Shown here: piece by piece, positions 10,573 to 55,735 of the stretch
Numbering within the stretch: position 1 is the first letter of the stretch
How the letters are laid out: each line of letters opens with the position of its first letter
DNA from: Candidatus Bathyarchaeota archaeon
GTDB taxonomy: Archaea > Thermoproteota > Bathyarchaeia > Bathyarchaeales > Bathycorpusculaceae
Assembly (NCBI GenBank): GCA_963833575.1
Contig: CAWHXY010000004.1
Span: 864,001-928,000, forward strand
Direction of reading: 5' to 3'
DNA: 64,000 bases
Position numbers and translations under genes: made by a program
The notes under the pieces: model-generated
Seen by the model: only the letters and a program-made list of their open reading frames with translations
Database searches by the model: none
What the model was told of the DNA's origin: nothing

Positions 10573-10607
10573 AACGCCCCTTTACTTTTTTGTTTTTCTC
10601 TGCAATG

Positions 10608-11579: not shown

Positions 11580-11644
11580 AACAAGTCACTCGATGCAGTT
11601 TGTTAAGAAACGTTAGGATAAATACGTGTCGAAAACGTCGGCTT

Positions 11645-13217: not shown

Positions 13218-13324
13218 GAGACACCAGGTTGCTTAAAACCCGATATTGGTGCAGTTATATTTAAGATTAACTATGACATATTTATGCCAAAAATCGAAGG
13301 TTAAAATATAAGAGGTAAAATCCT

Positions 13325-14512: not shown

Positions 14513-14529
14513 AAAATGGCGAAATCGCA

Positions 14530-15419: not shown

Positions 15420-15471
15420 CTCGTGTTTTCAGGTAAGTTACACACTTGAGCTATTGAACTTTGTTGAAAAA

Positions 15472-16230
15472 TTATCTGAAGAGGTCTTTTTCTTTGGCTC
15501 TAATAAGTTCGGTAGTTGATGCGCCCTCAGTTGTTTGGTACTTGTATCCTCGAATGATAGCAACAGGTATTCCCTCGTTGGCTTGTCCAATCACAAGTTC
15601 CGCTGCCGAAGATAATTCATCGGCAATGGCGGTTTGTTTTATTCGAAGAACGTATCCAAAGAGATCTTTTTCTCCACGTCTATCCCTAATTGGTTTAATT
15701 CCTGCAACACCAACTGCCACGTTTATTTCTCCTAAACGTAGAGGTCTTCCATGAGTATCAGAAATGATTACTGCAACGGTGGCTCCGGTTAACCGTTTTA
15801 TTCCCCGTCTTATGTTTTGTGCAGAAACGTTTGGGTTTTTTGGCAATGGTACCACGTTGCGGTCGCCTGAAACATTTGACCTGTCAATTCCAGCATTTGC
15901 ACAAATTATTCCGTTTTTAGTCTCCGTTATAATGCTGTTTTGTCCCAATCGCACTATTTCTTTAGTTTCTCTAAGAATGACCTCGACTAGAGCAGGCTCT
16001 TTGTTAGTTTCTTCTGCTAACTCCATTGCTCTCTCAGAAGGAGTCACTTTGTCAAGGTCGATAATGTTTCCTTCAGCTTTTGAAACTACCACATGAGTAA
16101 CAACTAATATGTCGTTTTCCATTAGTGGTGTACCCTGTTTTTCTGTAGCGTTTGAAATGAGCTCTGCTAAATTATCTCCATCTTTTATTAGCGGTAGATT
16201 TTCAACAGCAATTATCTTTATAATATCCAT
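15472..16230 (-). CDS. cofE: Coenzyme F420-0:L-glutamate ligase
   Basis: VVSKAEG, ANAGIDRSN, ISDTHGRPLRLG, ADELSSAAELVIG, DLFR. Confidence 0.95.
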   Translation of the reverse strand: MDIIKIIAVENLPLIKDGDNLAELISNATEKQGTPLMENDILVVTHVVVSKAEGNIIDLDKVTPSERAMELAEETNKEPALVEVILRETKEIVRLGQNSIITETKNGIICANAGIDRSNVSGDRNVVPLPKNPNVSAQNIRRGIKRLTGATVAVIISDTHGRPLRLGEINVAVGVAGIKPIRDRRGEKDLFGYVLRIKQTAIADELSSAAELVIGQANEGIPVAIIRGYKYQTTEGASTTELIRAKEKDLFR

Positions 16231-16396
16231 TTTTGTGCTTCCTTCTGAATTAAAGAGGCTACGGGAAAATCACTTTAAAGCTTATCTGTTCAGCTATTCG
16301 TTACTGGTGTCCAAAATTAGGTAAATACTGACAAGTTTTAAGAACTACTTACGGCTACATACAATAGTTGTCTGTTTTCTAATTGGTGTTTAATGG

Positions 16397-19405: not shown

Positions 19406-20401
19406 TTGGCGCTCAAGTTCGGAATCGAATTCGTTCCAAAAGACCCCTACTGGAAACTAGCAGCCTACGCTATACAAGCAGAAAACAGCGGTTTTGATAA
19501 CCTCTGGATAACAGACCACTATGGCAACCGTAATGTCTACGTGACCCTTGCAGCCGCAGCCATATATACAAACAAAATTGTCTTCGGCACAGGCGTAACC
19601 AACCCATGGATGGTTAACCCAGTCATAACCGCACAAGCCATCGCAACACTAGACGAGCTAGCGCCGGGAAGAGTTGTGCTCGGCATGGGTGCAGGAGACA
19701 AAACCACTCTTGAAGCAGTTGGCATAGATATGGGCAAACCCTTAGCGGCAGTAAAAGAAGCAATAGACATGTTCCGCAAACTAACAAACGGCGAAAAAGT
19801 AGCTTTCCAAGGCGAAGTCTTCAAAGCTGCCGGCGCCAAATTCAACTTTAAACCAGCACACAAGATTCCCGTTTACATCGGCGCTCAAGGGCCAAAAATG
19901 TTAGAGCTAGCCGGAAAAATCGGTGATGGTGTCCTCATCAACGCAAGTCACCCAAGCGATATAGAATTCGCTGTTAAAATGGCAAATGAAGGCATAAAAC
20001 AAGCAGGCAAATCACCAAGCGATGTTGACATAACAGCTTACACATCATTCTCAGTTAACGAAGATCCGAAAAAAGCAGTAAAAGCTGCAACGCCAGTCGT
20101 AGCTTTCATAGTCGCAGGCAGTCCACCGCCAGTACTTGAAAAACACAAAATTGATGTTGCCAAAGCAGACGAAATACGCGCAGGTCTCAAAGCAGGAGAT
20201 TTTCCCAAGGCATTAGCAGCTGTAACACCGGAAATGCTTGACGCCTTCTCAATATGTGGTACACCCGACATGTGCATTGAAAAAATCGCAGCACTACAAA
20301 AAATCGGCATAGGTCAATTCGTCGTAGGATCTCCAATCGGCACTAACGTCAAGAACTCAATTGACCTCATCGGCAGCAAAATCATCCCCCACTTTAAATA
20401 A
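19406..20401 (+). CDS. mer: F420-dependent methylene-H4MPT reductase
   Basis: KFGIEFVP, WITDHYGNRNV, GTGVTNP, GAQGPKML, INASHP, VGSPIG. Confidence 0.95.
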   Translation: MALKFGIEFVPKDPYWKLAAYAIQAENSGFDNLWITDHYGNRNVYVTLAAAAIYTNKIVFGTGVTNPWMVNPVITAQAIATLDELAPGRVVLGMGAGDKTTLEAVGIDMGKPLAAVKEAIDMFRKLTNGEKVAFQGEVFKAAGAKFNFKPAHKIPVYIGAQGPKMLELAGKIGDGVLINASHPSDIEFAVKMANEGIKQAGKSPSDVDITAYTSFSVNEDPKKAVKAATPVVAFIVAGSPPPVLEKHKIDVAKADEIRAGLKAGDFPKALAAVTPEMLDAFSICGTPDMCIEKIAALQKIGIGQFVVGSPIGTNVKNSIDLIGSKIIPHFK

Positions 20402-20508: not shown

Positions 20509-21147
20509 ATGGTTGTTTACGCGATAGTTCCAGTAAAAAAAATTGGCGTTTCCAAAAGACGTCTCTCTCAAAGCCTCAGCCTGCACGAACGCAAATCTTT
20601 AACCGTAGCCATGCTGGAGGACGTTTTAAAAGCACTACAAACATCGGTTGTCAACAAGGTTTTGGTCGTTAGCAACGACCCCAAGGTTCGCCCCATAGCC
20701 GAACGGTTTGGCGCCGACTTTTTTTCTCCGTTTCGCAAGGGCCTGAACTCCGCTATTGAAGAAGCGTGGGCTTGGTGTATAAGAAATAAAGCTGATTCAG
20801 TTTTGGTTTTGCCCGCTGACATTCCACTATTGGCCTCAAAGGATATTGATTGCATAGTCCAATTAGGTTCAGGTAACCGCCATGTGGTTTTAGCTCCATC
20901 CAAAGATTGGGGCACCAACGCTTTTTACCAGTGCCCACCACATATTGTTCACGCAAATTTTGGAAACGACAGCTTCATAAAACACACAAAAGAAGCGCAT
21001 AGCAAAGGGGCTTGCGTCAAATATTACTATTCACAGGGGGTCGGTTTGGATGTTGATTCTACCGATGATCTCCAAGTTTTGCTTAAGGTTAAGAATGAAA
21101 CGTTAAGTAGACAAGTTTTGCAGGGTTTCAAAATAACAAAAAGTTGA
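20509..21147 (+). CDS. cofC: 2-phospho-L-lactate/PEP guanylyltransferase
   Basis: AIVPVK..SKRRLS, AMLEDVL, GLNSA, PADIP, GTNA, DVDSTDDL. Confidence 0.93.
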   Translation: MVVYAIVPVKKIGVSKRRLSQSLSLHERKSLTVAMLEDVLKALQTSVVNKVLVVSNDPKVRPIAERFGADFFSPFRKGLNSAIEEAWAWCIRNKADSVLVLPADIPLLASKDIDCIVQLGSGNRHVVLAPSKDWGTNAFYQCPPHIVHANFGNDSFIKHTKEAHSKGACVKYYYSQGVGLDVDSTDDLQVLLKVKNETLSRQVLQGFKITKS

Positions 21148-21185: not shown

Positions 21186-21857
21186 TTAAGCTGGTGGAAC
21201 ACCGACTAATTGGATGCCTGCGCCTTTGATCTTGTAGCGTATGTTTATAGCGATTAGGGCTGCTGTCATGGTTTCAACGACTACTGCGTTCTCGATTGCG
21301 CCTGCATCGTAGGCGTCTATGCCGATTTTCTTTATCATGCCTATAATCATGTCGCGTGTTTCTCTATTTGCGCCGACGACTAGAACGTTTGTTTCTATTT
21401 TCTCGTCAAATTTTTCTAGTTGCTCTGGGCTTATGTTCTGGAATGCATCAACTACTTTTGCTTCAGGACCTAGGAAATTTTGTATTTCCTGGGCGATTGA
21501 GCCTGCAGGGTTGATTCTTGCTCGGCTTTTCTTTTCAGCATCAAGTGATGAGGCTATGTTGATTATGATTTTTCCTGGTGTGACTGGTTTGATGTCTTCA
21601 AGTATGGGTTTCATTCCGTCGTATGGAATAGCGAGGAGTACAATGTCGGCTTTGGCTGTTGCGTCGCGATTGGTGGAGCCTTCAGCTGTAAGAACGTTGA
21701 ATTCGGTGTTGAGATTATAAGCCGCGTTTATGGCCTTTTCAGAAGAACGAGATCCGATAATTGTGCGAAAACCTGCTCTAGCAAATCTAGCGGCAATCGC
21801 AAATCCTTCTTTACCCGTTCCACCGATTATAGCTATTGAGGATTTATTTTGCGACAT
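21186..21857 (-). CDS. npdG: F420H2:NADP+ oxidoreductase
   Basis: IAIIGGTGKEG, IGSRS..KA, VVDAFQNIS, NAVVVETMT..LI.INIRYK. Confidence 0.92.
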   Translation of the reverse strand: MSQNKSSIAIIGGTGKEGFAIAARFARAGFRTIIGSRSSEKAINAAYNLNTEFNVLTAEGSTNRDATAKADIVLLAIPYDGMKPILEDIKPVTPGKIIINIASSLDAEKKSRARINPAGSIAQEIQNFLGPEAKVVDAFQNISPEQLEKFDEKIETNVLVVGANRETRDMIIGMIKKIGIDAYDAGAIENAVVVETMTAALIAINIRYKIKGAGIQLVGVPPA

Positions 21858-22009: not shown

Positions 22010-22345
22010 CTACGTGTATGCTTTTTTTGTTTGTTGTGTGATTATTTCTCTTATTAATCGGCACAGATGAATTATTTTTGGGCTAGCAATCTGATAATAA
22101 ACTACTGCTCCGTCTCTCCTGACCGTTATGATTTTTTGTTGCCTCATGAGAGCTAAATGCTGCGAGAGATTGCTATGACTTACACTGACTATTTCCATTA
22201 GGTCCGTCATAGTTTTTTCACCTCCTTCCAGAAAATGTAGAATCATAAGACGTGTTGGGTGCGCCATGTTTCTTAGCAACTGAGCTTGCATTTCGCAGAG
22301 CATGATGTTAGATTTGATTGCCGCTTGCCTCTGCTCTTTCTCCAT
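22010..22345 (-). CDS. ArsR/SmtB family regulator (BigR/SqrR-like, two Cys)
   Basis: MAHPTRLMIL, SNLSQHLALMR, VRRDG..VYY; likely ATG at 22345 after a GGAG-rich RBS. Confidence 0.85.
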   Translation of the reverse strand: MEKEQRQAAIKSNIMLCEMQAQLLRNMAHPTRLMILHFLEGGEKTMTDLMEIVSVSHSNLSQHLALMRQQKIITVRRDGAVVYYQIASPKIIHLCRLIREIITQQTKKAYT

Positions 22346-22821
22346 ATTCTCCTGCTCCTCCACCTTAAGACAATTTACAAGCAAGTGTATAGATTAAGTT
22401 GCAATATAACAACATTAACACGGGTTCATATGATTTCCTCCAATTTAACTAATATAGAATAAGTAGTAAGAGAGCTAGCTATGCTTGTACTAGCTGTGCT
22501 TGTATCTGTTATGAAGTAAAGAGTGTAGACGCCTTTCCTATTGGCAGCCCTTGCTTGGGACAATGAAAAGCCAATTTGAAAACTACTCCATTTTGGTTGT
22601 GCGCGCTGGCTGTCCAAAATTAAAATATCTTATAACTATAAATGCGGTCGGCATTTGAAGAATGAATTAGCACAAGGAAGTTGAATCCCTCGCCTTTCTG
22701 ATCAGAATAAAACTTAGCGCCATGTATGCGGTTCTCTCTTCAGGCATTTGAGATAGCGATACGATTACAAATTTTATATCACTATGTTTGCTCCTTTCTC
22801 GATTAGACGTTGTGATATTTT

Positions 22822-23007
22822 ATGGCTGCCAAACCAGATTCTATTGACTTGTTAAACCAAACGGTAGAACGCGAGTTCCACGTAGCAGTACAGTATTTCC
22901 TTCAGCACGATAAAATCGAGAAAGTCCGTTTTTTTATGTATTTTATTCAAAAAGAATCATTTTTTTCTGCAAGTTCCATTGTTAAAATGCCCGTTAGCAA
23001 GGTTTAG
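22822..23007 (+). pseudogene. Truncated ferritin-like (bacterioferritin/DPSL-type) N-terminal fragment
   Basis: IDLLNQTVEREFHVAVQYFLQH resembles helix A of ferritin-like proteins; similarity is lost after about 35 codons. Confidence 0.55.
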
Positions 23008-23077
23008 GAAAAATACTTAAAGCCGAAAGCACCCAATTAAATGCAAATATAACCGAACTCAGTGTTGAGGTTGATTT

Positions 23078-23530
23078 GTGTCAGTAGAGAAAATTGATAG
23101 AATCATCGATAAATATGCTGACCAAAAAGGTGTTTTGATTCAACTTTTATTAGATGTACAGAAAGAGTTCAATTGGATACCGAAAGAAGCCGTTATCAGA
23201 ATAAATCAGAGATTGAAAATTCCAGTAAGCGAAATCTACCGAGTTGCAAGCTTCTACACTTCATTAAGCCTCAAACCGCGAGGACGCCATCTAATACGCG
23301 TGTGCCTCGGTACCGCCTGCTACGTACGTGGAGGCCCAAGAATTCTTGATTCTGTAGAGCGATGTTTCACCGTAAAGCCTGGCGAAACCACAGCTGACGG
23401 TCGTTTCAGCTTAGAAACAGTAAGTTGTTTAGGTGCATGCGATTTGGGACCCGTTATTGAATTGGATGGAAAATATCATGGAAGGCTCACTCCGACAAAT
23501 CTCGGGGAGATTCTTTCCAAGTATAAATAG
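23078..23530 (+). CDS. NuoE/HydC-like [2Fe-2S] subunit
   Basis: VCLGTACYVRG, VSCLGACDLGP, VASFY. Confidence 0.93.
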   Translation: MSVEKIDRIIDKYADQKGVLIQLLLDVQKEFNWIPKEAVIRINQRLKIPVSEIYRVASFYTSLSLKPRGRHLIRVCLGTACYVRGGPRILDSVERCFTVKPGETTADGRFSLETVSCLGACDLGPVIELDGKYHGRLTPTNLGEILSKYK

Positions 23531-23557
23531 GTAAAAAGAGCACGGAGGAAAAAAAAG

Positions 23558-25480
23558 ATGCCCTTCTTAACTTCCCCTGAGGATTTAGAACAGCTCCGAC
23601 GAGTTCTACTAGCCATAAGCGACTACAAAAAGCCCACAGTCATATTATGTGGAGCTACAGGTTGCGATACTCTTGGAGCAAAAGAAGTCGTTAAAGCTTT
23701 TAAAGAAGAATTTGAGAAACGAAACTTAGAAGGCAAAGTAGACATCAAAGAAACCGGCTGTTTGGGATCGTGTGAAAAAGGACCACGTGTCACCATACAG
23801 CCTGAAGAAATCGCTTATTTCCGTGTGAAAGCGTCTGATGTCGCTGAAATAGTTGAAAGGACCCTGCTTAACAAAGAAATAATTGAGCGGCTGCTCTACA
23901 TTGATCCGACCACGGGCGTGGTAGCTCGATATCTTTACGAAGTGCCTTTTTACAAATATCAAAATAGGCTTCTCCTAGACAGAAATGCAAAGCTTGACCC
24001 AAAAAACATAGAAGACTACATTAAATTAAACGGTTACCAAGCTTTAGCTAAAGCTCTATTTCATATGACCCCAGACCAAGTGATTGAAGAAATCAAAAAA
24101 TCTGGGCTCCGAGGACGAGGGGGAGGGGGATTCCCAACTTTTCAGAAGTGGGACTCAGCTCGCAAAGCAAATGGCACCCCCAAGTACGTAATCGTCAACG
24201 GCAACGAGAGCAACCCTGGAACGTTCATGAGCCGCATTTTAATGGAAGGAAACCCGAACGTTATCCTTGAAGGCCTAATAATTGGAGGGTACACAATCGG
24301 TGCACATGAAGGCTTTATCTACTTACGTCAAGACTACCCGCTTGCCTTAGAAAACATGCAAGCTGCCATCGATCAAGCAACGGCTTTTGGGCTGCTCGGA
24401 AAGAACATTCTCGGATCAGGCTTCGACTTTGAAGTTAAGATCTACCGAAGTGCAGGAGGCTTCGTTTCGGGAGAATCAACCGCCCTCATGAAGGCGATTG
24501 AAGGCAAAGCAGGTGAACCAAGGCCTAAGTACATACGTAGCTCAGAAAAGGGGCTTTGGGGTAAACCTACAGTTCTCAACAACGTAGAAACATGGGCAAA
24601 CATTCCATTAATTATCAACAACGGCGCAGAATGGTTCTCAGGAATAGGTTTAGCAGGAAACAAAGGTACCAAAATCTTTGTTTTGTCAGGAAACGCTATC
24701 AACACTGGATTGATTGAGGTTCCGCTAGGCGTAACCATGAGAGACATAGTCTTCAAAATTGGCGGCGGCATACGAAATGGAAAAAAGTTCAAAGCGGTTC
24801 AAATAGGTGGACCCGCAGGTGGCATGATTCCTGAGCAATACCTTGATGTCCCAATAGCCTTTGACGAACTCGAAAAATTGGGTGCCAAGATGGGTTCAGG
24901 TGGATTAATCGTAATGGATAATGAAACCTGTATGGTTGATGCAGCGCGTTACTTTGTTAACTTCCTCTCCAAAGAGTCCTGTGGCAAATGTGTACCCTGT
25001 AGAGAGGGTCTGCTACAGGCAAACGAAATACTTACTAGGATCGTGTCGGGAAAAGGTGAAGAAAAAGACATCGAGAAACTTCGGCAAATCGCCGAGACAT
25101 CTAGCCTTGCTTCTCTTTGTGCTTTGGGAGCGACATCTGCTAATCCAATGCTTACATCTCTTCGGTATTTTGCGTACGAATACGAAGAGCACATAAACGG
25201 GAAAAGATGCCCCGCGCTGTCTTGCAAGCCTCTGATAAACTTCTACATTGACCCATTGAAATGCATGGCCTGCACGCTCTGCTCAAGAAATTGCCCAGTG
25301 AAAGCCATCGATGGCGCGCCAGGCAAGATCCATATCATTGACCAAAATAAATGTGTTAAATGCGGTACTTGTTTTGACCAATGCAAGTTCAAAGCGGTTA
25401 CAAAGATATCTGGAGAACCCGTTCCTCCGCCAATTCCCGAGGAGCAAAGGATAAAAAAGCCAGTTGGACGGGCGAACTAA
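23558..25480 (+). CDS. NuoF/HydB-like FMN/NAD(P)H subunit, long (bifurcating-type) architecture
   Basis: N-terminal Trx-like [2Fe-2S] (CGATGC, GCLGSC), GLRGRGGGGFPT, ESCGKCVPCREG..SLC, H....CPALSC, C-terminal 2x[4Fe-4S]. Confidence 0.93.
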   Translation: MPFLTSPEDLEQLRRVLLAISDYKKPTVILCGATGCDTLGAKEVVKAFKEEFEKRNLEGKVDIKETGCLGSCEKGPRVTIQPEEIAYFRVKASDVAEIVERTLLNKEIIERLLYIDPTTGVVARYLYEVPFYKYQNRLLLDRNAKLDPKNIEDYIKLNGYQALAKALFHMTPDQVIEEIKKSGLRGRGGGGFPTFQKWDSARKANGTPKYVIVNGNESNPGTFMSRILMEGNPNVILEGLIIGGYTIGAHEGFIYLRQDYPLALENMQAAIDQATAFGLLGKNILGSGFDFEVKIYRSAGGFVSGESTALMKAIEGKAGEPRPKYIRSSEKGLWGKPTVLNNVETWANIPLIINNGAEWFSGIGLAGNKGTKIFVLSGNAINTGLIEVPLGVTMRDIVFKIGGGIRNGKKFKAVQIGGPAGGMIPEQYLDVPIAFDELEKLGAKMGSGGLIVMDNETCMVDAARYFVNFLSKESCGKCVPCREGLLQANEILTRIVSGKGEEKDIEKLRQIAETSSLASLCALGATSANPMLTSLRYFAYEYEEHINGKRCPALSCKPLINFYIDPLKCMACTLCSRNCPVKAIDGAPGKIHIIDQNKCVKCGTCFDQCKFKAVTKISGEPVPPPIPEEQRIKKPVGRAN

Positions 25481-25481
25481 A

Positions 25482-26954
25482 ATGACGACAAATAATGCGG
25501 AACCGGCGGTTAAAGAAATCACTTTAAAAATAGATAACCAAGAAGTCAAGGCAAAAGAGGGCGAAACCATCCTCGACGTTGCCAAAAGGCTGAACATAAA
25601 CATACCTACACTATGCTTTGTGAAGGCGCTCTCTCCGTTTGGCGCTTGCCGCCTGTGCTCAGTGGAGATCGCCGAAAAAAATGGAAAAAGCCGCATGGTG
25701 ACTAGCTGCAATTATCCTGTTCAAGAAGGCTTGGTCGTTTTTACGAGATCCGAAAAAACCATAAAGATTCGCAAAATGTTGCTTGAACTGCTGCTGGCGC
25801 GTTGCCCCAAGGTTGCGAAAATTCAAGAGTTAGCCCTTGAATATGGCGTTAAAACGACGGGTTTTTGGGTAGCCGATGAAAATGAAGACTGTATCTTGTG
25901 TGGTTTATGCACTCGTGTATGTGACGAACTTGTAGGCGTAAACGCAATAGATTTTGCCAACCGTGGGCTTGAACGTGAAGTCACTGCTCCGTATCACGAG
26001 TTTTCCAATGACTGCATAGGTTGTGGTGCCTGCGCTGCCATATGCCCAACTAAATCAAAAAGAACAAGGATAACCACGTACCCGGTATTAGAGGAAGACG
26101 CTAAGAAAATTAACGAGCAGTTCCTCAAAGGCACTTGCGACGAGAATATAGGCGTCTATCAAGAAATAATCGGAGCTAAAAGCTTGGTTGCCGGCCAAGA
26201 CGGCGGCATGGCCACAGCACTTTTGATCTCAGGCATGCAAAAGGGCATGTTTGATTCAGCAATCGTTGTCCAACGAAAAGATGGCTATCAAGCGGAAGCA
26301 GTCGTAGCAGAAAACATTGATGATATTATGAAAGCCAAGGGCACAAAGTATCTTCGTGTAAAGATGCTTTCTTTGCTGACTGATTTGGTGGCCAAGGGAA
26401 AGCGTAAAATTGCCTTGGTAGGCACGCCCTGTGAAATCCGTGCGGCACGAAAGATTCAGCAAGCACTTCTTGAGGCGCACCCTGATTTGCAGTTAACACT
26501 TGTGGGCCTGTTCTGCTTCGAAGCATTCGAATACGACAAACTCAAGGAGGCAGCACAGCAGCTTATGGGCGTCGACATTGACACCGTCGAAAAAACACAG
26601 ATAACCAAAGGCAAATTTATTGCAACCGTCAACGGAACCGACCACACAATACCCGTTAAAGAAATGAGCGCTGCACAGGCGCATGGCTGCAACTTCTGCG
26701 ATGACCTCACTAACAAATTCGCTGACATCTCTGTAGGTTCAGTCGGAACTCCAGAGGGCTTCTCAACCATCATAGTCAGGTCCGACATCGGAGCTAAGCT
26801 GCTAGAAAACGTTGAGTTCACTAAAATAGACGTCAACAAAGACGAACTTACGAAGCTGTCAGGATTCAAAAAGGGTCGGGCGAAAAAGAACTTCGCCAAG
26901 ATTATGCCGCCTGAACCTCCAATTCAAGTAGCACCAAAACTCGCAGTTCAATAA
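25482..26954 (+). CDS. Fusion of a HydA/NuoG-type N-terminal Fe-S module with a FrhB/FdhB F420-binding domain
   Basis: IPTLC..GACRLCSVE..SC [2Fe-2S]; CILCGLCTRVC and CIGCGACAAICP; then GQDGGMATALL, VGTPC, GLFCFEAF, GCNFCDD, ADISVGSVG..GFSTIIVRS. ATG at 25482 lies 1 nt after the upstream stop. Confidence 0.9.
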   Translation: MTTNNAEPAVKEITLKIDNQEVKAKEGETILDVAKRLNINIPTLCFVKALSPFGACRLCSVEIAEKNGKSRMVTSCNYPVQEGLVVFTRSEKTIKIRKMLLELLLARCPKVAKIQELALEYGVKTTGFWVADENEDCILCGLCTRVCDELVGVNAIDFANRGLEREVTAPYHEFSNDCIGCGACAAICPTKSKRTRITTYPVLEEDAKKINEQFLKGTCDENIGVYQEIIGAKSLVAGQDGGMATALLISGMQKGMFDSAIVVQRKDGYQAEAVVAENIDDIMKAKGTKYLRVKMLSLLTDLVAKGKRKIALVGTPCEIRAARKIQQALLEAHPDLQLTLVGLFCFEAFEYDKLKEAAQQLMGVDIDTVEKTQITKGKFIATVNGTDHTIPVKEMSAAQAHGCNFCDDLTNKFADISVGSVGTPEGFSTIIVRSDIGAKLLENVEFTKIDVNKDELTKLSGFKKGRAKKNFAKIMPPEPPIQVAPKLAVQ

Positions 26955-26992
26955 TTGCTTTTTCTTCCCTTACTTTCGCTAAACCCACGGGG

Positions 26993-27730
26993 TTATGTGC
27001 ATCCGTTGTATGCAGAGGGAATCCACGGTACTACTCGAATTGACGGTTCTTTAAGCTCGTTAAGGGTGGCTACGGTTAGCAGGAGAGGAACCATGGCTTC
27101 AATCAGTCTGGAGTTTTCTAGAGGGCCTGCTTTCAGTGGTCTCAAGTTAGGTATTTCGCAGATCAGCTTAGCCACTTCAGTGACTGACCAGTCATCGTTG
27201 CCTGCTGCAAAAACATCGATATTTAGTGATTTCTCTGTGTCACTCAAGTACACCGCGGGAATAGTGTGAAACGAGGACACTACGCTGGCTGGTCTTACAA
27301 TTTCCTGAATTAGCTCTGCAACTGATTTCTGTTCTGCTGCTTCAGCCTCAAAGCTTCCCGCGGTAGAGTTTGAAATTGGTATGTGCCTAAAGATACCTTG
27401 ACTTCTTTTCATTGAGACTATTGTTGAAATGACTATTTGATTTTGATGAAAATATGGTTTCAGTTCTTGCATTGCTTGAAGAGTAGCGTCGGCTGGAATG
27501 GTAACGATTACCGTTTCAGACTTTTCTACCGCATCCTTAGCAGAAGCACCATTAATGCTTCCCAACATGTTACTCTTATGAAAGTCACGGGCGTCAGCTT
27601 CAAGCCTTTTCGCGGTTTGAACTGCTTTTTCATAGTTCCTTGAAGTAATGAGCACATCGTGGTTTTTTGCCATCCTAAAGGCAAGACCTCTGCCCATTCT
27701 ACCCACTCCACCAATAATGCCTATTTTCAA
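26993..27730 (-). CDS. Second F420-dependent NADP oxidoreductase (NpdG family), divergent paralog
   Basis: MKIGIIGGVGRMGRGLA, TSRNYEKA, VVSSFHTIPA, AGPLENSRLIEAMVPLL. Confidence 0.85.
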   Translation of the reverse strand: MKIGIIGGVGRMGRGLAFRMAKNHDVLITSRNYEKAVQTAKRLEADARDFHKSNMLGSINGASAKDAVEKSETVIVTIPADATLQAMQELKPYFHQNQIVISTIVSMKRSQGIFRHIPISNSTAGSFEAEAAEQKSVAELIQEIVRPASVVSSFHTIPAVYLSDTEKSLNIDVFAAGNDDWSVTEVAKLICEIPNLRPLKAGPLENSRLIEAMVPLLLTVATLNELKEPSIRVVPWIPSAYNGCT

Positions 27731-27920
27731 ATCAGCAACCCCTTAATTCATAATTTATTAAAATCAGACTTTGACTACAATAAACTTTGTTTTCCAAGAA
27801 TTAAAACATTATTTGTTTTTAGCTCTCGCACTTTTCTGAAAGAACAACAATTGAAATTGCCATTTTCTGGAAAGACCGTTTTGAGTTGCTTTTTTGATTT
27901 AGAGCTTTAATCGTTTGCAG

Positions 27921-48297: not shown

Positions 48298-48468
48298 GTA
48301 TTTCACCTCCCATTTTTAGACTAAAAAAGCCTAGATTTTTGGTTAATGACCAAATGGTATTTTGCTTATCTGAAGATATAAAAATTTCCGTTAAGATTCA
48401 TATTCAATTATTCAATTTTAAGGAAACGTAAATTAATGTACGCTTAAATTTATTCAATAGTGAATTCT

Positions 48469-49248
48469 ATGAAGGTAGCAGTTTCTGGTAAAGGCGGAGT
48501 CGGCAAAACCCTAATTGCTGGTGGTTTAGCCCATGGTTTTGCTGAACGCGGCTTAAAAACTATTGCGATTGATGCAGATTCCTCTCCAAATCTGGCTTTA
48601 ACGCTGGGTTTGTCGGCTGAGGAAACGCGTAAAATCGTGCCTATTTCCGAGAATAAGACTCTAGTCGAGTCCAAAACAAGCACTGAATACACAGGTGTTT
48701 ACAACTTAAATTTCACGGTTGACGACATTGTCAAGGAATATTCTGTTCCCACACCATTAGGTGTAAACTTGATTGTTATGGGTACCGTTCAGGCAATGGA
48801 GGCAGGATGCATGTGTGCTCCAAACGCTGTCATACGCGCTTTGCTTCGCCATCTAGTTGTGGAACGAGACGAAGCTGTTGTTTTGGACCTTGAAGCCGGT
48901 GTAGAGCATATAGGCAGGGGCACCGCCAGACAAGTAGACGCATTACTAATTATTGCTGACTCTAACCTGAAATCTCTGGAAATCGCTAAGCACATACATG
49001 ACATGGCGTCTGTCGCTGGCATGAAAAAACTTTACCTCATCGGCAACAGAGTCATGAACGATGCCCAAAAAGAGGCCATTCAGAACTTCGCAGACAAAAA
49101 TGGCTTAACGGTGCTTGCTTTTATACCGTGGGATCAAAAAGTCATAGATGCTGACATGCAAGGCGAAACCCCGCTTAAGAATAAGGAAATAGTTGCTGTT
49201 AAAACCATAGATAATATATGTGAGCTTTTGCTTAAGAAAGCAGCTTAG
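48469..49248 (+). CDS. cooC: CooC/AcsF nickel-insertion ATPase
   Basis: GKGGVGKT, IDAD, GCMC, DLEAGVEH.GRG. Confidence 0.92.
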   Translation: MKVAVSGKGGVGKTLIAGGLAHGFAERGLKTIAIDADSSPNLALTLGLSAEETRKIVPISENKTLVESKTSTEYTGVYNLNFTVDDIVKEYSVPTPLGVNLIVMGTVQAMEAGCMCAPNAVIRALLRHLVVERDEAVVLDLEAGVEHIGRGTARQVDALLIIADSNLKSLEIAKHIHDMASVAGMKKLYLIGNRVMNDAQKEAIQNFADKNGLTVLAFIPWDQKVIDADMQGETPLKNKEIVAVKTIDNICELLLKKAA

Positions 49249-49266
49249 ACTATGAGGTTTTATTAA

Positions 49267-50031
49267 ATGAAAACTCTTGTTACTATTGGGCGTGGTGGAA
49301 CAGGAAAATCCAGCTTCACGGCTTTAATGGCTAAAAGTTTCATAGAAACTTACCAATCACCTCTTTTGCTAGTTGATGCTGATCCAGACCAGAACCTAGG
49401 CGAAATGCTTGGAATTGACCTGAAAGAAGCAGGAAAATCAACCATAGCCGAGCTTCTTGTGAGCACATTCATCGAGCAAGGAGGCACTACAATCGGCGTT
49501 CCTCCGACCCAACGAATAGAAAGCCGCATCTGGGAAAAAGGGTTATACGAGAGCGAAAATTTCGATTTTCTCTCGGTTGGCACTAAATGGGTTGAAGGCT
49601 GCTATTGCATGCCGAATTCAGCTCTGAAAGGTGCACTAGAATCATTAACTAAAAATTACAAATATATACTCGTTGACTCTCCAGCTGGACTAGAAAACCT
49701 AAACAGACGAATTACTTCAAACGTAAACGACATTTTCGATATTCTCGATCACTCAAAGAAATCCCAAGACCATGTTAGACGAGCCGTCAAAATAGCTAAT
49801 GAAGTTGACATGAAATTTGAAAACTTTTACTTAGTGGGTGGCTACCGTTTTCCAGCAGAACTTGGAAAACAAGCTGAAGCTGACCTAAAATTCAAGTACT
49901 TGGGAAAAATTGAAGCTGATGAGACGTTAGATGAATATGTTTTGGGTGGAAAGTCGCTTCTTGAATTGCCAAAAGACAACAAAGCATACCTCTCAGTTAA
50001 GGAAATACTGAAAACTTTGGGCTATTTGTAG
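49267..50031 (+). CDS. cooC: Second CooC/AcsF-type ATPase
   Basis: GRGGTGKS, VDADPDQNL, EGCYC, DSPAGLENLNRR. Confidence 0.88.
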   Translation: MKTLVTIGRGGTGKSSFTALMAKSFIETYQSPLLLVDADPDQNLGEMLGIDLKEAGKSTIAELLVSTFIEQGGTTIGVPPTQRIESRIWEKGLYESENFDFLSVGTKWVEGCYCMPNSALKGALESLTKNYKYILVDSPAGLENLNRRITSNVNDIFDILDHSKKSQDHVRRAVKIANEVDMKFENFYLVGGYRFPAELGKQAEADLKFKYLGKIEADETLDEYVLGGKSLLELPKDNKAYLSVKEILKTLGYL

Positions 50032-50167: not shown

Positions 50168-52516
50168 TTGACAAGTAAAAACGTCCAAATTAAAATCGAC
50201 GAAATGAAGACCAGTAATGGTCAAATTAAAAACTTTGAATTGTCCATTGGCAAAGTTATCAACGATAATTACACAGAACCGATGGGTCCTACCCCAATGC
50301 CATCCATGACTACCCTGCGAGATTGGGACATGAAACTCCTCAATAAGTACAAGCCATTTTACATGCCAGATTGTGATCTTTGCTGTCTGTGCACTTTTGG
50401 AAAATGCGATTTGACAGCTGGAAAACGCGGTGCATGCGGCATAGACATAGCAACCCAATCATCTCGAATTGTGATGTTAGCTTGTGCAATTGGCGCAGCA
50501 TGCCACTCAGCACACTCACGCCACTTAGTTCAACACTTAATTGAAAAATACGGTCGCAGATACCCATTAAACGTCGGCGGCCTAAACATTAAAGTTGAAG
50601 CGCCAGTTACACGCCTTGTTGTAGGAGTAAAACCCGAAACTCTCGGAGATCTTGAAGATGTTTTGTCTTATGTTGAAGAACAAATCACCCAAGTTCTTGC
50701 AGTTGGACACACAGGTCAAGAAGGTCACAATTTAGATTTTGAATCCAAAGCTTTCCACGTCGGCATGATTGACCACGTTGGTATGGAAGTCGGTGACATT
50801 GCACAGATTTCCACCTTAGGTTACCCAAAAGCTGAGGCTGACGCACCACTTGTGAAGCTTGGTATTGGTAGTGTTGATCGAGCAAAGCCCGTTGTTATGG
50901 TCATCGGACACAACGTGGTTCCATCGATTGGAATTATCGATTATGCAAAAGAAACCAAAGCTGACGACAAAATAGAAGTAGTCGGCTTATGCTGCACAGC
51001 ACACGACATAACTAGGTACTATAACAAAGCCAGAATCGTTGGACCAATCAGCTGGGAGTTAAGATACATACGTGCAGGTTTGGCAGACGTGGTCGTTCTT
51101 GACGAACAATGCATTCGAACAGACGTCTACGAAGAAGCAGCAAAAGTTAACGCTCCAGTAATCGCTGCATCAGAAAAGAACTGCATGGGCTTCAAGAACC
51201 GCACAAATGACCCAACAGACGAAATTGTCTCTGACCTAGTAAGCGGCAAAGTTCAAGGTGTGCTGATCCTTGACCCAGAAAAAGTTGGCGAAGTCGCAGT
51301 CCGTGTCGCTCAGAGTGTTGCTCCATTACGCAAACGAAAGAGCAGCCTTCCAACGTTAGAGGAAATTACCCAAATTGCTAAGACTTGCACACAATGCAAG
51401 AGTTGCCAACGTAACTGTCCACAAGACTACGCAATTCCAGCAGCAATCAAAGCAGCAGCAAAAGGTGACATAACCTTACTAACCGACTTGTATGAGACGT
51501 GCATCGGCTGCGGAAGGTGCGAAGAAGCATGCCCACAAAAAATCATGATCCACAGTCTCATCGTTAAAGCAGGCGAAAAAGCAATGCTTGCAGAAAACAA
51601 TCTTTGCAGGGTAGGCAGAGGCGCAGTTCAGGACGTTGAAATCCGCAATGTAGGCAGCCCAATCGTCCTTGGAGAAATCCCAGGTATCCTTGCAGTAGTT
51701 GGTTGCAGCAACTATCCAAAAGGCGGAAAAGACGTCTATGATATATGCAGAGAATTCGCACTGAGACGATACATCGTTGTCTTATCAGGATGCTCAGCCA
51801 TGTCAGCTGGCAGCTACAGAAACAGCGAAGGCCAAACAATATACGAAGAATTCCCAGGCGGATTCGAAGCTGGAGGAGTGCTCAACGTCGGCTCATGCGT
51901 AGCAAACAGCCACATCGCCGGTGCATGTATCAAAGTAGCAAACATATTCGCAAAACGCCCATTAAGAGGCAACTATGAAGAAATCGCAGATTACATCCAC
52001 AACCGCTTAGGTGCAGTTGGCTTAGCTTGGGGTGCATATTCACAGAAAGCCGCAGCAATTGGAGCGGGATTCTGGCGTTTAGGCGTACCAGTCCTCGTTG
52101 GACCACACGGTGTAAAGTACCGTCGTATGCTCCTTGGTAGAAAAGATCACCCAGAAGACTTTGAAGTTTACGATGCACGCACAGGCGACAAAGTAAGAGT
52201 CGGACCAGCACCAGAACACCTCTTTAACTCAGTAGAAACCAAAGAAGAATGTATGGTTGCCATCGCAAAGCTTTGCATTAGACCAAACGATACATGGAAA
52301 GGACGCAGCATAAAACTAAGCCACTATGTCGACTTAAGCAAACGATACTTAGGCGTTATGCCTGATGACTTGCACCTGTTCGTAAGAACAATGGCTGATG
52401 TCCCAATGACCATGAAAGACGAATTCACAAAGATACTTGAAGCACACGACTGGAAAGAAACAGTAATTCCGGACCCAACATTACTTCCAAGAATGGTCCG
52501 AAAAATGAAGGAGTAA
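50168..52516 (+). CDS. cdhA: CO dehydrogenase/acetyl-CoA synthase alpha subunit
   Basis: CDLCCLCTFGKC, GHN, GLCCT, DEQC, 2x[4Fe-4S] insert, GSCVAN, SQKA. Confidence 0.97.
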   Translation: MTSKNVQIKIDEMKTSNGQIKNFELSIGKVINDNYTEPMGPTPMPSMTTLRDWDMKLLNKYKPFYMPDCDLCCLCTFGKCDLTAGKRGACGIDIATQSSRIVMLACAIGAACHSAHSRHLVQHLIEKYGRRYPLNVGGLNIKVEAPVTRLVVGVKPETLGDLEDVLSYVEEQITQVLAVGHTGQEGHNLDFESKAFHVGMIDHVGMEVGDIAQISTLGYPKAEADAPLVKLGIGSVDRAKPVVMVIGHNVVPSIGIIDYAKETKADDKIEVVGLCCTAHDITRYYNKARIVGPISWELRYIRAGLADVVVLDEQCIRTDVYEEAAKVNAPVIAASEKNCMGFKNRTNDPTDEIVSDLVSGKVQGVLILDPEKVGEVAVRVAQSVAPLRKRKSSLPTLEEITQIAKTCTQCKSCQRNCPQDYAIPAAIKAAAKGDITLLTDLYETCIGCGRCEEACPQKIMIHSLIVKAGEKAMLAENNLCRVGRGAVQDVEIRNVGSPIVLGEIPGILAVVGCSNYPKGGKDVYDICREFALRRYIVVLSGCSAMSAGSYRNSEGQTIYEEFPGGFEAGGVLNVGSCVANSHIAGACIKVANIFAKRPLRGNYEEIADYIHNRLGAVGLAWGAYSQKAAAIGAGFWRLGVPVLVGPHGVKYRRMLLGRKDHPEDFEVYDARTGDKVRVGPAPEHLFNSVETKEECMVAIAKLCIRPNDTWKGRSIKLSHYVDLSKRYLGVMPDDLHLFVRTMADVPMTMKDEFTKILEAHDWKETVIPDPTLLPRMVRKMKE

Positions 52517-52532: not shown

Positions 52533-53075
52533 ATGTCCTGTGAACCATGGCAATGTGCAGAAATAGCCTCAACTAAAAAAGCAAACCCCATAACTAAACC
52601 CGAGATAGCAGTAGCAATGATCAAAAAAGCCCAACGTCCCCTTCTTATTGTGGGAAGCAATGCGACTGAAAGGTACATGGAAGGCAAACAATTAATCGAA
52701 TACATGATTGACTTTGCTAACGCCTCCAAAGTACCAGTGGTAGCAACTGCTCACATGGTGGGCGAATTCATAAAGCGTGGATACCAACCAGCGGCATTTA
52801 TGAATGCAATGGAGATTGGAAACCTAGTAGTTGATCCAACCTGGCAGGGGTTGGACGGCAAAGGACACCCAGACTTAGTTATGTTTGTCGGGTTGCCTTA
52901 CTATGTTGAATCGTTGATGCTCTCAGGGCTCAAACATTTTGCACCGGACCTAAAAACTATGACTCTCGACAACCTGTTTCATGTGCATGCGAGCTGGTCT
53001 TTCCCAAATGCAACCCTAGAAGAATGGGCTGCAAACCTCAAAGTAATGACCTCAAAATTTAATGGAGGAAATTAA
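52533..53075 (+). CDS. cdhB: CODH/ACS epsilon subunit
   Basis: IKKAQRPLLIVG, WQGLDGKGHPDL, ASWSFPN. Confidence 0.95.
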   Translation: MSCEPWQCAEIASTKKANPITKPEIAVAMIKKAQRPLLIVGSNATERYMEGKQLIEYMIDFANASKVPVVATAHMVGEFIKRGYQPAAFMNAMEIGNLVVDPTWQGLDGKGHPDLVMFVGLPYYVESLMLSGLKHFAPDLKTMTLDNLFHVHASWSFPNATLEEWAANLKVMTSKFNGGN

Positions 53076-53078
53076 AAA

Positions 53079-54491
53079 ATGTCTATGTTTAAAGATATAC
53101 CTGTTGAAGTTGGCGTAATATTCGAAGGCGAACGTATCCGAAGAAATGACATGCAAGTAGAACTCGGCGGACCCACTGTAAAACAAAAGTTTGAATTAGC
53201 TAAAGTAAAACCCATGGATGAAGTCGAAGATGGAAAAATTACCATCATCGGCCCAGACTTAAAAGACCTGAAAGAAGGCGGCGCATACCCCTTCGGTATT
53301 CTTGTCGAAGCTGCAGGCGCAAAACTTGACCAAGGCCTCGAAGGAGTTATTGAAAGGCGCATTCACGGCTATCTGAACTACATCGAAGGCTTCATGCACC
53401 TCAATCAGCGTTATGACATCTGGATACGCATTGGCAAAAAATCATTCCAAAAAGGTTTGAACAGTTTTGAACCAATCGGCAAAGTTCTCTTACGCTTATT
53501 CAAGAGTGAACTACCAATTATTGAGAAAGTGCAAATTACCTTCATAACAGACCCAGCAAAACTAGAAGAAATGACTCCTGAAGCAATGCAAGCATATGAA
53601 TCACGCGATGCAAAAGCCAGAGGCCTCAAAGACTCAGAAGTAGACACATTCTATGGTTGTGCGCTCTGCCAATCATTTGCACCAAGCCACGTCTGCATAA
53701 TTACACCTCAAAGGTACAGCAACTGCGGCGCAATCAGCTGGTTTGACGGCAAAGCCTCAGCAAGCATTGATCCGAAAGGTCCAGTATTCGCTATTCCAAG
53801 AGGAGAAATGATCAACGAAGAGAAAGGCGAGTTCTCAGGCGTCAACGAAGCCGCGAAAAAACGTACCATGGGCGAAGTTAACCAAGTTTGGCTCTACACA
53901 GCATTTGACCACCCACACACTTCATGCGGATGCTTCGAAGCAGTAACATTCTATATCCCTGAAGTCGACGGATTAGCAGTAGTAAACAGAGCCTTCAAAG
54001 GTGCAGCTGTAAACGGCTTACCCTTCAGCACTATCGCAGATTCAGCCGCAGGCGGAAGACAAATTGACGGGTTCCACGGAATGTCCATTGAATACATGAG
54101 AAGCAAAAAATTCTTCGCTGCAGACGGTGGATGGAACCGAATAGTTTGGGTACCTAAAGAAGTCAAAGAAAAAGTGAAAGACTTCATACCCCCAGAACTC
54201 GTTGATAAAATAGCGACTGAAGAAGACGCAAAGAACGTAGATGAACTCAAAGCTTTCCTTAAAGCTAAGAATCACCCAGTCGTCGCAAGATGGGAAAAAG
54301 AAGAAGCACCAGTAGCAGAAGCACCAACAATGCAAATTAATGAAGAAGCAGCAGGAACAATGATGCCAGTTGCAACAGCAGGCACACTCCCAATAATGGC
54401 CGGCGGATTCAAAATCATACTTAAAGACGCAAAAATCTATGCAAACAAAGTCATCATAACAACAGTCAAAGACGACAAAGACAAACGGTGA
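53079..54491 (+). CDS. cdhC: Acetyl-CoA synthase beta subunit
   Basis: FYGCALCQSFAP.HVC, PHTSCGCFE. Confidence 0.97.
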   Translation: MSMFKDIPVEVGVIFEGERIRRNDMQVELGGPTVKQKFELAKVKPMDEVEDGKITIIGPDLKDLKEGGAYPFGILVEAAGAKLDQGLEGVIERRIHGYLNYIEGFMHLNQRYDIWIRIGKKSFQKGLNSFEPIGKVLLRLFKSELPIIEKVQITFITDPAKLEEMTPEAMQAYESRDAKARGLKDSEVDTFYGCALCQSFAPSHVCIITPQRYSNCGAISWFDGKASASIDPKGPVFAIPRGEMINEEKGEFSGVNEAAKKRTMGEVNQVWLYTAFDHPHTSCGCFEAVTFYIPEVDGLAVVNRAFKGAAVNGLPFSTIADSAAGGRQIDGFHGMSIEYMRSKKFFAADGGWNRIVWVPKEVKEKVKDFIPPELVDKIATEEDAKNVDELKAFLKAKNHPVVARWEKEEAPVAEAPTMQINEEAAGTMMPVATAGTLPIMAGGFKIILKDAKIYANKVIITTVKDDKDKR

Positions 54492-55729: not shown

Positions 55730-55735
55730 GGAGAT

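Follow-up and report, generated by a model that had tools for sequence, protein, structure and literature searches.

The window analysed here is a stretch of 64,000 nucleotides from the genome of a Candidatus Bathyarchaeota archaeon (assembly GCA_963833575.1, contig CAWHXY010000004.1, positions 864,001 to 928,000 of the forward strand). It carries at positions 23078-26954 three co-directional open reading frames (ORFs), bfuC, bfuB and bfuA, whose predicted product is a soluble, heterotrimeric Bfu (HydABC-type) enzyme of the type called F420-Bfu, with coenzyme F420 as the probable third substrate. The first-pass annotation had described a NuoE-like gene, a long NuoF-like gene and a gene for a third subunit at this place, and the ORFs and Pfam models bear it out (Table 1). 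A GGAGG sequence stands 8 nt upstream of the bfuB ATG. For bfuA, the ORF opening with TTG at 25464 is present as annotated, but the true start is more likely the ATG at 25482, because this codon sits one base past the bfuB stop and gives a protein of 490 amino acids, the length of the database protein P0001, which is 96% identical to BfuA. With this start the genes are spaced by 27 nt (bfuC-bfuB) and 1 nt (bfuB-bfuA), a packing that suggests one operon.

BfuC has as its best solved relative the HydC subunit of a bifurcating NiFe enzyme (7t2r_C, E-value 9.1e-45). Its Cys 76, 81, 117 and 121 show the spacing of Cys 74, 79, 115 and 119 of Thermococcus sibiricus (Tsi) NfnC, reported as the ligands of the C1 cluster (PMC12018979), and a single [2Fe-2S] site (C1) is predicted, as in other members of the Bfu family. 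BfuB consists of an N-terminal thioredoxin-like [2Fe-2S] domain (residues 25-101), a Complex1_51K domain (PF01512, E-value 2e-40) with a Gly-rich loop for flavin mononucleotide (FMN) at residue 183, an NADH_4Fe-4S domain (PF10589, E-value 5.8e-29), two Fer4 motifs and a Pro-rich tail (residues 617-640). Besides the FMN/NAD(H) domain and the predicted N3-type [4Fe-4S] site B1 (Cys 475, 478, 481 and 521) expected of the family, the additional sites B2-B5 are complete: the N-terminal [2Fe-2S] site (Cys 31, 36, 68 and 72), a Cys3His site (Cys458/His545/Cys551/Cys556), modelled as a [2Fe-2S] cluster or zinc in solved Bfu structures (PMC12318220), and the C-terminal pair of [4Fe-4S] sites (Cys 569-579 and 599-609). 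The extra HydB sites noticed at first inspection, including the TC..H..C..C motif, thus hold up. In a comparison of the window copy with 29 public-genome orthologues (30 copies), the 19 Cys and His545 are retained throughout, apart from the first two Cys, which are missing in L022; orthologues conserving the B2-B5 and C1 sites are 57-78% identical.

Non-bifurcating homologues lack the B2-B5 sites according to PMC9304861, and the eight C-terminal Cys are missing in the HoxF of the same genome and in L033b. The six best solved relatives of BfuB (7t2r_B, 9mqx_B, 8a6t_B, 7q4v_B, 7p5h_B and 9n5u_B) align near full length with 618-719 bits, the first over residues 27-617 with 719 bits and the second with 698 bits, and every one of them is a subunit of a characterised bifurcating enzyme; NuoF chains reach at most 358 bits, over the core region only. 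That BfuB and BfuC form a bifurcating core, as such cores are defined by their cofactors, is supported by this predicted architecture.

BfuA joins an iron-sulfur part to an FrhB module. As foreseen in the first-pass annotation, domain models matched Fer2_4 (residues 17-96), a Fer4-type pair of [4Fe-4S] motifs (139-198), FrhB_FdhB_N (243-305; PF04422, 56 bits, cut-off 22) and FrhB_FdhB_C (314-451; PF04432, 134 bits, cut-off 23.3). Sixteen Cys are invariant, four of them for A1, eight for the two [4Fe-4S] clusters and four (Cys 323, 351, 409 and 412) in the FrhB part. The fusion of a complete FrhB domain had been recognised before and stands, and no H-cluster, molybdenum-bis(pyranopterin guanine dinucleotide) or NiFe domain was found in BfuA by Pfam and NCBIfam scans. 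The HydA/NuoG-like wire ascribed to this subunit is incomplete, as BfuA contains no His-x3-Cys-x2-Cys-x5-Cys motif of the His-ligated cluster A3 and its Cys114 is not conserved. A3 is described as likewise missing in Bfu clade 45 (PMC9304861) and in WorA (PMC12318220). The NuoG equivalog model TIGR01973 matches residues 21-113 only, with 81.5 bits against a cut-off of 470, and the FrhB and FpoF equivalog models of NCBIfam also stay below their cut-offs, so that BfuA is an orthologue of neither FrhB nor FpoF. Residues 21-196 align with WorA (9mqx_A, E-value 3.4e-38, the closest solved structure), and residues 183-477 with Fsr, FrhB and the zeta subunit of a carbon monoxide dehydrogenase (CODH), with which they share sequence blocks. 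In an AlphaFold2 model built on 10 sequences, with a mean predicted local distance difference test (pLDDT) value of 56.7, the FrhB part superposes on FrhB chains in Foldseek with a template modelling (TM) score of 0.77-0.78, a root-mean-square deviation of 2.9 A and 32% identity. Both FrhB_FdhB domains, the four-Cys [4Fe-4S] site and the fold place it in the FrhB/FdhB/FpoF family, and we infer that it binds flavin adenine dinucleotide (FAD) and reacts with F420. In the 94%-complete genome, bfuA is the sole PF04432 (FrhB-family) gene.

Judged by its predicted architecture and phylogeny, the enzyme is a member of an already predicted type and not a new kind. The F420-Bfu was predicted by Schut et al. 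2022 (PMC9304861) as a Type 1 enzyme of BfuB clade 45, from two Methanosaetaceae sequences; its BfuA bears an F420-reducing FAD domain, and the proposed role was the supply of F420H2 from NADH and ferredoxin. The surmise of the first-pass annotation that such fusions might be listed in surveys was therefore correct, as was its remark that no characterisation was known. Within the literature searched, the term F420-Bfu occurs in no other paper, searches on Bfu and electron bifurcating with FrhB found nothing, and no characterised F420-Bfu was found. The window's BfuA, with predicted A1, A2 and A4 clusters, without A3 and fused to an FrhB-like domain, has the composition of this type. In a BfuB tree of 61 rows, from which six rows (L012 and five proteins longer than 900 amino acids) had been dropped, the window's BfuB falls among 34 archaeal F420-Bfu rows that form a clade with support 100/100, in which 31 Bathyarchaeia rows have Methanothrix, Methanosaeta and Ca. 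Methanolliviera as their sister group; with four Chloroflexota rows these make up a 38-row clade supported at 100/99. BfuB thus groups with the Methanosaetaceae sequences (L030 and L031) near clade-45-like BfuBs of Chloroflexota. The HoxF of the same genome sits on a branch of 1.2 changes per column, away from the 59 long BfuB-type rows.

Among 1418 database matches to BfuA, the best 120 share the fused architecture without exception (62-96% identity), and the names given by NCBI, where present, are mostly Bathyarchaeota. At the 50% identity level, two representatives among the best 150 of 12,588 matches span the whole fusion, which indicates an abundant but narrow family. A survey of synteny in Bathyarchaeia, proposed in the first-pass annotation, finds a full-length copy in 19 of 401 sampled genomes, the window's genome included; all carriers belong to two families of one order, and four of the 40 genomes of the window's genus are among them. 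The three genes occur together, in two gene orders, at 29 of 33 related loci, the other four being cut by contig ends or fragmented, so that the arrangement is not due to chance. Most congeners carry instead a lone FrhB paralogue of about 290 amino acids.

Several known systems resemble the predicted enzyme in part. The Methanosaetaceae F420-Bfu as described in PMC9304861 has the same three subunits, an FrhB-like domain fused to BfuA and no A3. The Methanothrix/Methanosaeta copies are orthologues (47-48% identity for BfuA, 57% for BfuB, same 100/100 clade), found in methanogens, whereas the host here belongs to the Bathyarchaeia, and the window's sub-clade differs from them by a variant FMN-site motif. 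The linkage of bfuCBA to mer, and in relatives to cdh, also makes its role look catabolic (Wood-Ljungdahl pathway), as against the biosynthetic F420H2 supply proposed in PMC9304861. WorABCSL of Acetomicrobium mobile (PDB 9MQX; PMC12318220) likewise combines A1, A2 and A4 without A3 with a bifurcating BC core; WorA is the closest solved counterpart of the N-terminal part of BfuA, and WorB (9mqx_B) is second-best for BfuB. In the description given there, WorA is short and recruits a separate tungsten WorSL through a C-terminal helix, whereas BfuA has the fused FrhB module; the third substrate is an aldehyde in the one and would be F420 in the other. NfnABC of Thermococcus sibiricus (PDB 9N5U/9N5V; PMC12018979) is an archaeal Type 1 Bfu with the same BC core, in which BfuA is likewise fused to a flavin domain, one that serves a hydride carrier with a potential of about -340 to -380 mV. 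Its third substrate is NADPH, bound by an NfnL-like FAD domain in the place of the FrhB module.

An FrhB module following two [4Fe-4S] clusters, and a link between F420 and CODH, are also found in the F420-reducing CODH of Ca. Ethanoperedens thermophilum (alpha2 epsilon2 zeta2; PDB 8RIU; PMC11493965), whose chain 8riu_B matches BfuA residues 188-456 (E-value 2.2e-33; TM 0.64). As reported, that enzyme is non-bifurcating, has no NuoE or NuoF subunits and transfers electrons from CO to F420 only, whereas the FrhB module of BfuA would feed a predicted bifurcating core. The FrhB of the F420-reducing [NiFe] hydrogenase (for example 9R51, 6QII and 4CI0) has the same fold, Pfam families and four Cys; unlike it, BfuA has no FrhA or FrhG partner. 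HoxEFU, encoded on another contig of the same genome (C1), is a homologous trio of NuoE-, NuoF- and NuoG-N-terminal-like proteins, but its HoxF lacks the C-terminal pair of [4Fe-4S] sites that BfuB has, and the HoxU model matches HoxU with an E-value of 1.9e-93 against 1.5e-37 for BfuA. In a model from 2025 of how M. harundinacea takes up electrons, FrhB appears as a partner of HdrABC and Bfu is not mentioned. M. harundinacea (L031, genome G401) has a fused bfuCBA, and its metagenome-assembled genome (MAG) contains three FrhB-family matches, ORFs of 379, 467 and 651 amino acids. An attempt to equate the fused bfuA with Mhar_2358, the "only frhB gene" of the literature on direct interspecies electron transfer, where frhB is described as highly expressed, did not succeed, the MAG having these three matches.

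A tie to the CODH/acetyl-CoA synthase (CODH/ACS) appears at some of the 33 loci with a fused bfuA, whose neighbours were judged within the fetched flanks. In seven of them (L013, at 7636-18459, L021, L023, L025, L026, L028 and L029; five complete, two cut by contig ends) the genes are embedded in the cdh operon in the order cooC-cooC-cdhA-bfuA-bfuC-bfuB::cdhB-cdhC-cdhD-cdhE, and no separate cdhB is present. The BfuB::CdhB proteins have 813-827 amino acids, and the epsilon subunit (PF02552) is joined after the B3/B4 domain at the BfuB C-terminus, not to the FrhB-bearing subunit. Six such fusions stand among the best 120 BfuB relatives, and no paper describing the fusion was found within the literature searched. 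They form one clade (100/100) in the BfuB tree, and the mer-linked forms form another, which contains the window. Two further loci (L014 and L015, with BfuA 72% and 70% identical to that of the window) show mer-cofC-bfuCBA-cooC-cooC-cdhABCDE in one run, bfuA lying about 100-210 nt from cooC as against 21.5 kb in the window. The mer-cofC-bfuCBA synteny is shared by L001, L014, L015 and L033; two of the 33 loci have it with no cdh in reach, and 22 have neither mer nor cdh inside the flanks. A conserved Pro-rich tail of some 25 residues closes the BfuBs of archaeal F420-Bfus, with L030 as the exception and L031 showing a weaker form; it is absent from the bacterial BfuBs examined. In fused BfuBs this tail is the linker into CdhB, it is retained in unfused forms, and the junction motif of the fusions is where the window's free CdhB starts. 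A link from Mer to CODH/ACS had been proposed for the window: the CODH/ACS side comes out stronger, with seven embedded and two adjacent loci, and the Mer side holds for the window's clade only (8 of 19 carriers).

Lone FrhB paralogues of about 290 amino acids also occur, divergently oriented, 1-7 kb from a cooC-cdh operon (L037, 145-10795; G102, G127 and G217), so that FrhB modules are linked to CODH/ACS even without a Bfu core. A 718-amino-acid protein in which an RnfD-like membrane domain (PF03116) is fused to two [4Fe-4S] sites and a full FrhB is encoded at L084 (4784-6940, minus strand; contig C10 of G038). ORFs of similar size and match occur in nine of the 401 sampled genomes, the window's own genome not being one of them, and the L084 fusion has no further rnf gene nearer than about 4 kb.

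We consider it rather probable, from sequence and homology, that bfuCBA encodes a reversible F420H2:NAD(P)+/ferredoxin oxidoreductase working by the Bfu flavin/cluster mechanism, and the overall claim of the first-pass annotation, a coupling of F420 to NAD(P)H and ferredoxin, is in this sense partly supported. Built on gene content, ligand conservation, the FrhB fold, phylogeny and synteny, the scheme predicts the bound cofactors, the route of the electrons, their coupling and the direction of the reaction. The FrhB-like half of BfuA would hold FAD and exchange hydride with F420H2/F420, as its homologues do. Single electrons would pass from the FrhB [4Fe-4S] cluster through A4, A2 and A1 of BfuA to B1 and the FMN of BfuB and, by analogy with solved Bfu enzymes, be split at the FMN/B1/C1 site: one pair would leave the FMN as hydride to NAD(P)+, and the mobile C1 of BfuC would carry the second pair to B3/B4 at the BfuB C-terminus, from which ferredoxin would receive it. 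The overall reaction would be 2 F420H2 + NAD(P)+ + 2 Fd(ox) <-> 2 F420 + NAD(P)H + 2 Fd(red), where Fd is ferredoxin. With the potentials given in PMC9304861 (F420 -360 mV, NAD -280 mV, ferredoxin -500 mV), it would be near equilibrium, so that the ratios of the pools would set its direction. With plentiful NADH and reduced ferredoxin, F420H2 would be made for Mer; during methyl-group oxidation, reduced ferredoxin would be made for CODH/ACS. We read the F420-Bfu as a probable hub tying the F420 pool, used by Mer and two NpdG proteins, to NAD(H) and to the ferredoxin pool of CODH/ACS, and together with the two NpdG it might act like an Nfn transhydrogenase.

Several observations weigh against this scheme. 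Activity data for any F420-Bfu are absent from the literature searched, and residues 1-209 of the BfuA model have pLDDT values below 50, which makes its N-terminal half unreliable. The genome also encodes other ways to move electrons among the F420, NAD(P) and ferredoxin pools: Hox, HdrABC-MvhADG, an RnfD-like gene, an Fpo-like complex and the two NpdG. Mer was detected in 8 of the 19 carriers (background in the order, 49 of 201 genomes) but not in any of the five genomes with cdh-embedded copies, so that the Mer link is clade-specific; CdhC was found in all 19, against a background of 152 of 201. These counts do not discriminate, and the genomes are related. Five metatranscriptome runs from five studies contain 5-9% of the sampled words, and four of them were compared with the locus. 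Short RNA-library contigs, 95-99% alike, match mer, npdG, the ArsR gene, bfuB (three studies) and bfuA (two studies), leaving most of bfuC and parts of bfuA and cofC uncovered, which carries no information on whether these stretches are expressed. As these contigs come from close relatives and RNA libraries can contain DNA, they are a weak hint of transcription of bfuB and bfuA and not proof of it.

The FMN site of the window's BfuB belongs to the same side of the balance. Asp-195, Ala-Phe-Met 201-203, Phe-281 and GGPSG are described as highly conserved, though not family-defining, signatures of the Bfu FMN site, the Asp being proposed to stabilise the flavosemiquinone (PMC12018979). By a gapless correspondence to 9n5u_B with an offset of 21, the window's BfuB has Asn216 in place of Asp-195, Thr222-Phe-Met224 in place of AFM and GGPAG (417-421) in place of GGPSG, and so departs from this secondary signature in its Asp, Ala and Ser, keeping the equivalents of Met-203 and Phe-281 (Met224 and Phe302). 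Its residues 214-226 read NGNESNPGTFMSR, and all 29 orthologues keep a DEGDPG core, mostly within NCDEGDPGAFMNR; Asp stands at the Asp-195 position in all 29 of them and AFM in 26. The cdh-embedded orthologues L013, L021 and L023 read VFA, like the non-bifurcating HoxF, so that this clade does not hold strictly to the AFM signature. At 16 columns that do not vary among the other 29, the window's BfuB also carries a substitution, more than any other of the 30 copies. The variant motif is common to four independent proteins (P0121-P0124; 80-94% identity) and marks a 100/100 sub-clade on a stem of 0.15 in the BfuB tree, which points to a selected variant and not to an error. An assembly error was ruled out by these four proteins and by the RNA-library contigs of three studies, which overlap the motif and list no difference inside its DNA. 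The Ser307 of BfuB, at the position of Glu-286, a residue linked to NADH selectivity (PMC12018979), was also considered as a sign of NADP use, but is no firm one, as the NAD-using WorB has Ser there too in the alignment.

The altered FMN site speaks for the view that the enzyme is an F420H2:NAD(P)+ oxidoreductase without bifurcation, built as a diaphorase of the HoxEFU kind carrying an FrhB head, in which the extra clusters would be structural or dead ends and no ferredoxin would be involved. The Asp proposed for the flavosemiquinone is missing, TFM replaces AFM, F420 and NAD(P) have similar potentials by the values in PMC9304861, and bifurcation has been demonstrated for no F420-Bfu. We nevertheless hold this view to be improbable, because the B2-B5 ligands and the subunit with the mobile C1 are retained across orthologues as far apart as noted above, a short HoxF for plain NAD(H) chemistry is encoded in the same genome, and the two npdG genes beside the operon already serve F420:NADP exchange. 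The recurrent fusion and adjacency to CODH/ACS also argue that the low-potential end is used.

That F420-Bfu is a dedicated electron module of the archaeal CODH/ACS is doubtful for the unfused enzyme of the window and falls a little short of an even call for the fused relatives. In such a module, B3/B4 would be wired to the CdhA clusters through the Pro-rich tail of BfuB and the epsilon subunit, and NAD+ reduction would pull F420H2 oxidation and drive CO2 to CO for acetyl-CoA without free ferredoxin. The corresponding reaction for the window, with bfuCBA docking by BfuB B3/B4 and tail at the CdhA/CdhB surface and CO2/CO as low-potential partner, would be 2 F420H2 + NAD+ + CO2 <-> 2 F420 + NADH + CO + H2O. 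CO2 reduction by F420H2 alone would be endergonic according to Lemaire et al. 2024 (PMC11493965), a barrier that a bifurcating module would overcome, and in the Ca. Ethanoperedens structure reported there (8RIU) the FrhB-like zeta subunit sits at the alpha/epsilon interface. Direct docking is further suggested by the replacement of free cdhB by the BfuB::CdhB fusion inside the cdh operon, by the recurrence of this fusion among the best BfuB relatives, by the linker-like tail kept in unfused archaeal BfuBs, that of the window included, and by the start of the window's free CdhB at the fusion junction. For the window, however, it is rated unlikely: its cdhB is separate and 25 kb away, bfuCBA lies 21.5 kb from the cdh operon, most of the compared loci have no cdh gene in their flanks, and the fused forms make up a single clade, so that the fusion may be a feature elaborated in one lineage. 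A physical tie to CODH is seen in relatives only.

It is very unlikely that bfuCBA is the missing NuoEFG/FpoF-type input module of a membrane Fpo/Hfo-like complex, delivering electrons from NADH, F420H2 or both. Such a role would suit the genome's Fpo-like cluster, of the 11-subunit type, for which no FpoF or NuoEFG genes are present. A "NuoEFG" cluster of three genes is given this reading in the B. tardum paper (PMC10477458), and a Bathyarchaeum MAG (L008) has bfuCBA. In complex I, the His-ligated [4Fe-4S] cluster and the C-terminal molybdopterin-like domain of NuoG contact the Q-module, and the cluster, equivalent to N5, hands electrons to NuoI. BfuA has neither the His-ligated motif nor any of this C-terminal domain. 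Moreover, bfuCBA and the Fpo-like cluster lie on different contigs (C4 and C7), BfuB clusters with soluble Bfu enzymes, and no nuo or fpo neighbour was seen at the 33 loci with the queries used, nuo genes not having been searched for directly. That the trimer is incomplete and needs a catalytic hydrogenase or formate dehydrogenase subunit from elsewhere is scarcely credible, despite several NiFe hydrogenase gene sets in the genome (none of the Frh type), since A3, the entry route of NiFe-Bfu SL subunits as described in PMC12318220, is absent from BfuA, the fused FrhB module takes up the A4 branch, the hydrogenase sets all come with partners of their own (HoxEFU or HdrABC/MvhD) and only the three bfu genes are conserved together; the first-pass annotation had likewise seen no such partner.

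The acknowledged gap to which this locus speaks is how non-methanogenic archaea with a tetrahydromethanopterin (H4MPT) Wood-Ljungdahl pathway produce and dispose of F420H2 and obtain ferredoxin-level electrons for CODH/ACS. The source of F420H2 for Mer in Bathyarchaeia was called unclear by Loh et al. 2021, and papers on Bathyarchaeia have described a lone FrhB, FrhB plus HdrABC, or the cluster as "NuoEFG". For this gap bfuCBA and its relatives are a concrete candidate of three clonable genes, with a gene-fusion argument for partnership with CODH/ACS. New here are the distribution in Bathyarchaeia, the standing of bfuA as the genome's sole FrhB-family gene, the fusion and operon evidence for CODH/ACS, the conserved BfuB tail and the natural FMN-site variant, whose Asp-to-Asn exchange offers a direct test of the role proposed for that Asp in bifurcation. 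With a characterised F420-Bfu, the Bfu family would gain a third-substrate class, and a dedicated CODH/ACS module, if real, would be an F420H2/NAD+-dependent bifurcating CO2 reductase, the reductive counterpart of the F420-reducing CODH of ethane oxidisers.

Table 1. The bfu cluster and other features of the window, with the models that matched them
Feature	Positions	Strand	Support and remarks
bfuC, NuoE/HydC-like, C1 [2Fe-2S]	23078..23530	+	150 amino acids; PF01257 full length, E-value 2.5e-49
bfuB, long NuoF/HydB-like	23558..25480	+	640 amino acids; Pfam domains, conserved ligands
bfuA, Fe-S part fused to FrhB module	25464..26954	+	496 amino acids from TTG; Pfam PF13510, PF12838, PF04422, PF04432
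ArsR/SmtB-family regulator	22010..22384	-	PF01022, NF033788; divergent from bfuC over a 693-nt spacer
cofE, F420 gamma-glutamyl ligase	15472..16230	-	PF01996, E-value 1.3e-76
mer, F420-dependent methylene-H4MPT reductase	19406..20401	+	TIGR03555, 444 bits, cut-off 348.7
cofC, F420 biosynthesis	20509..21147	+	TIGR03552, 153 bits, cut-off 105
npdG copy 1, F420:NADP oxidoreductase	21186..21857	-	TIGR01915, 167.9 bits, cut-off 149.8
npdG copy 2, F420:NADP oxidoreductase	26993..27730	-	TIGR01915, 160.7 bits, cut-off 149.8; convergent with bfuA
two cooC-like maturation ATPase genes heading the cdh operon	48460..50031	+	PF01656, PF13614
cdhA, CODH alpha subunit	50168..52516	+	PF03063 and Fer4 insert
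cdhB, CODH epsilon subunit, free	52533..53075	+	PF02552, E-value 7.1e-31
cdhC, cdhD, cdhE, acetyl-CoA synthase and corrinoid subunits	53079..57169	+	PF03598/PF19436; PF03599; PF03599 and PF04060

The genes for Mer, CofC, CofE, two NpdG and CdhA-E reported earlier in the window were all found again with Pfam and TIGR models. An npdG between cofC and bfuC is also present in L015. In the rest of the genome, Mch, two Ftr genes, HoxEFUYH, HdrABC-MvhADG, an Fpo-like complex without FpoF and an RnfD-like gene were found; searches of the genome for McrA and for an F420-dependent Mtd (PF01993) found neither. With Mer, Mch, Ftr and CODH/ACS present and McrA not found, the description of the host as a non-methanogen with Wood-Ljungdahl genes stands. 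Upstream of bfuC, no convincing small ORF was found in the spacer that separates it from the ArsR gene; a 61-amino-acid ORF lies there at 22822-23007 on the plus strand. Rfam gave zero matches in 22300-27900, this spacer included, at E-values up to 0.1. A sigma-70 promoter and terminator scan of 22300-27200 gave four promoter-like sites against 6.8 in shuffles, with a model that is not applicable to archaea.

The 21.5-kb block between bfuA and the cdh operon (26955-48459) contains npdG copy 2, a Na+/H+ exchanger, two P-type ATPases (one for heavy metals), a ClC channel, regulators, a flavodoxin, a thioredoxin and an OsmC-like gene; no tRNA was found in it and no integrase-like domain matched there. 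A pair of deoxyhypusine synthase paralogues (9508-10572, plus strand; 10608-11579, minus strand) has its counterpart directly 5' of cooC-cdhA in L013 (3750-5739), which hints at an older neighbourhood shared by the window and L013. On contig C1 of the same genome (G000; L081, 5866-14770), hoxE-hoxF-hoxU-hoxY-hoxH are followed in one co-directional run by hdrC-hdrB and a second pair of NiFe small and large subunit genes. An ADP-forming acetyl-CoA synthetase, with its alpha and beta parts fused to a C-terminal GNAT domain, is encoded both in the window (16397-19063, plus strand) and in L081 (2792-5638, plus strand), and the genome has two such fusion genes, for proteins of 888 and 948 amino acids.

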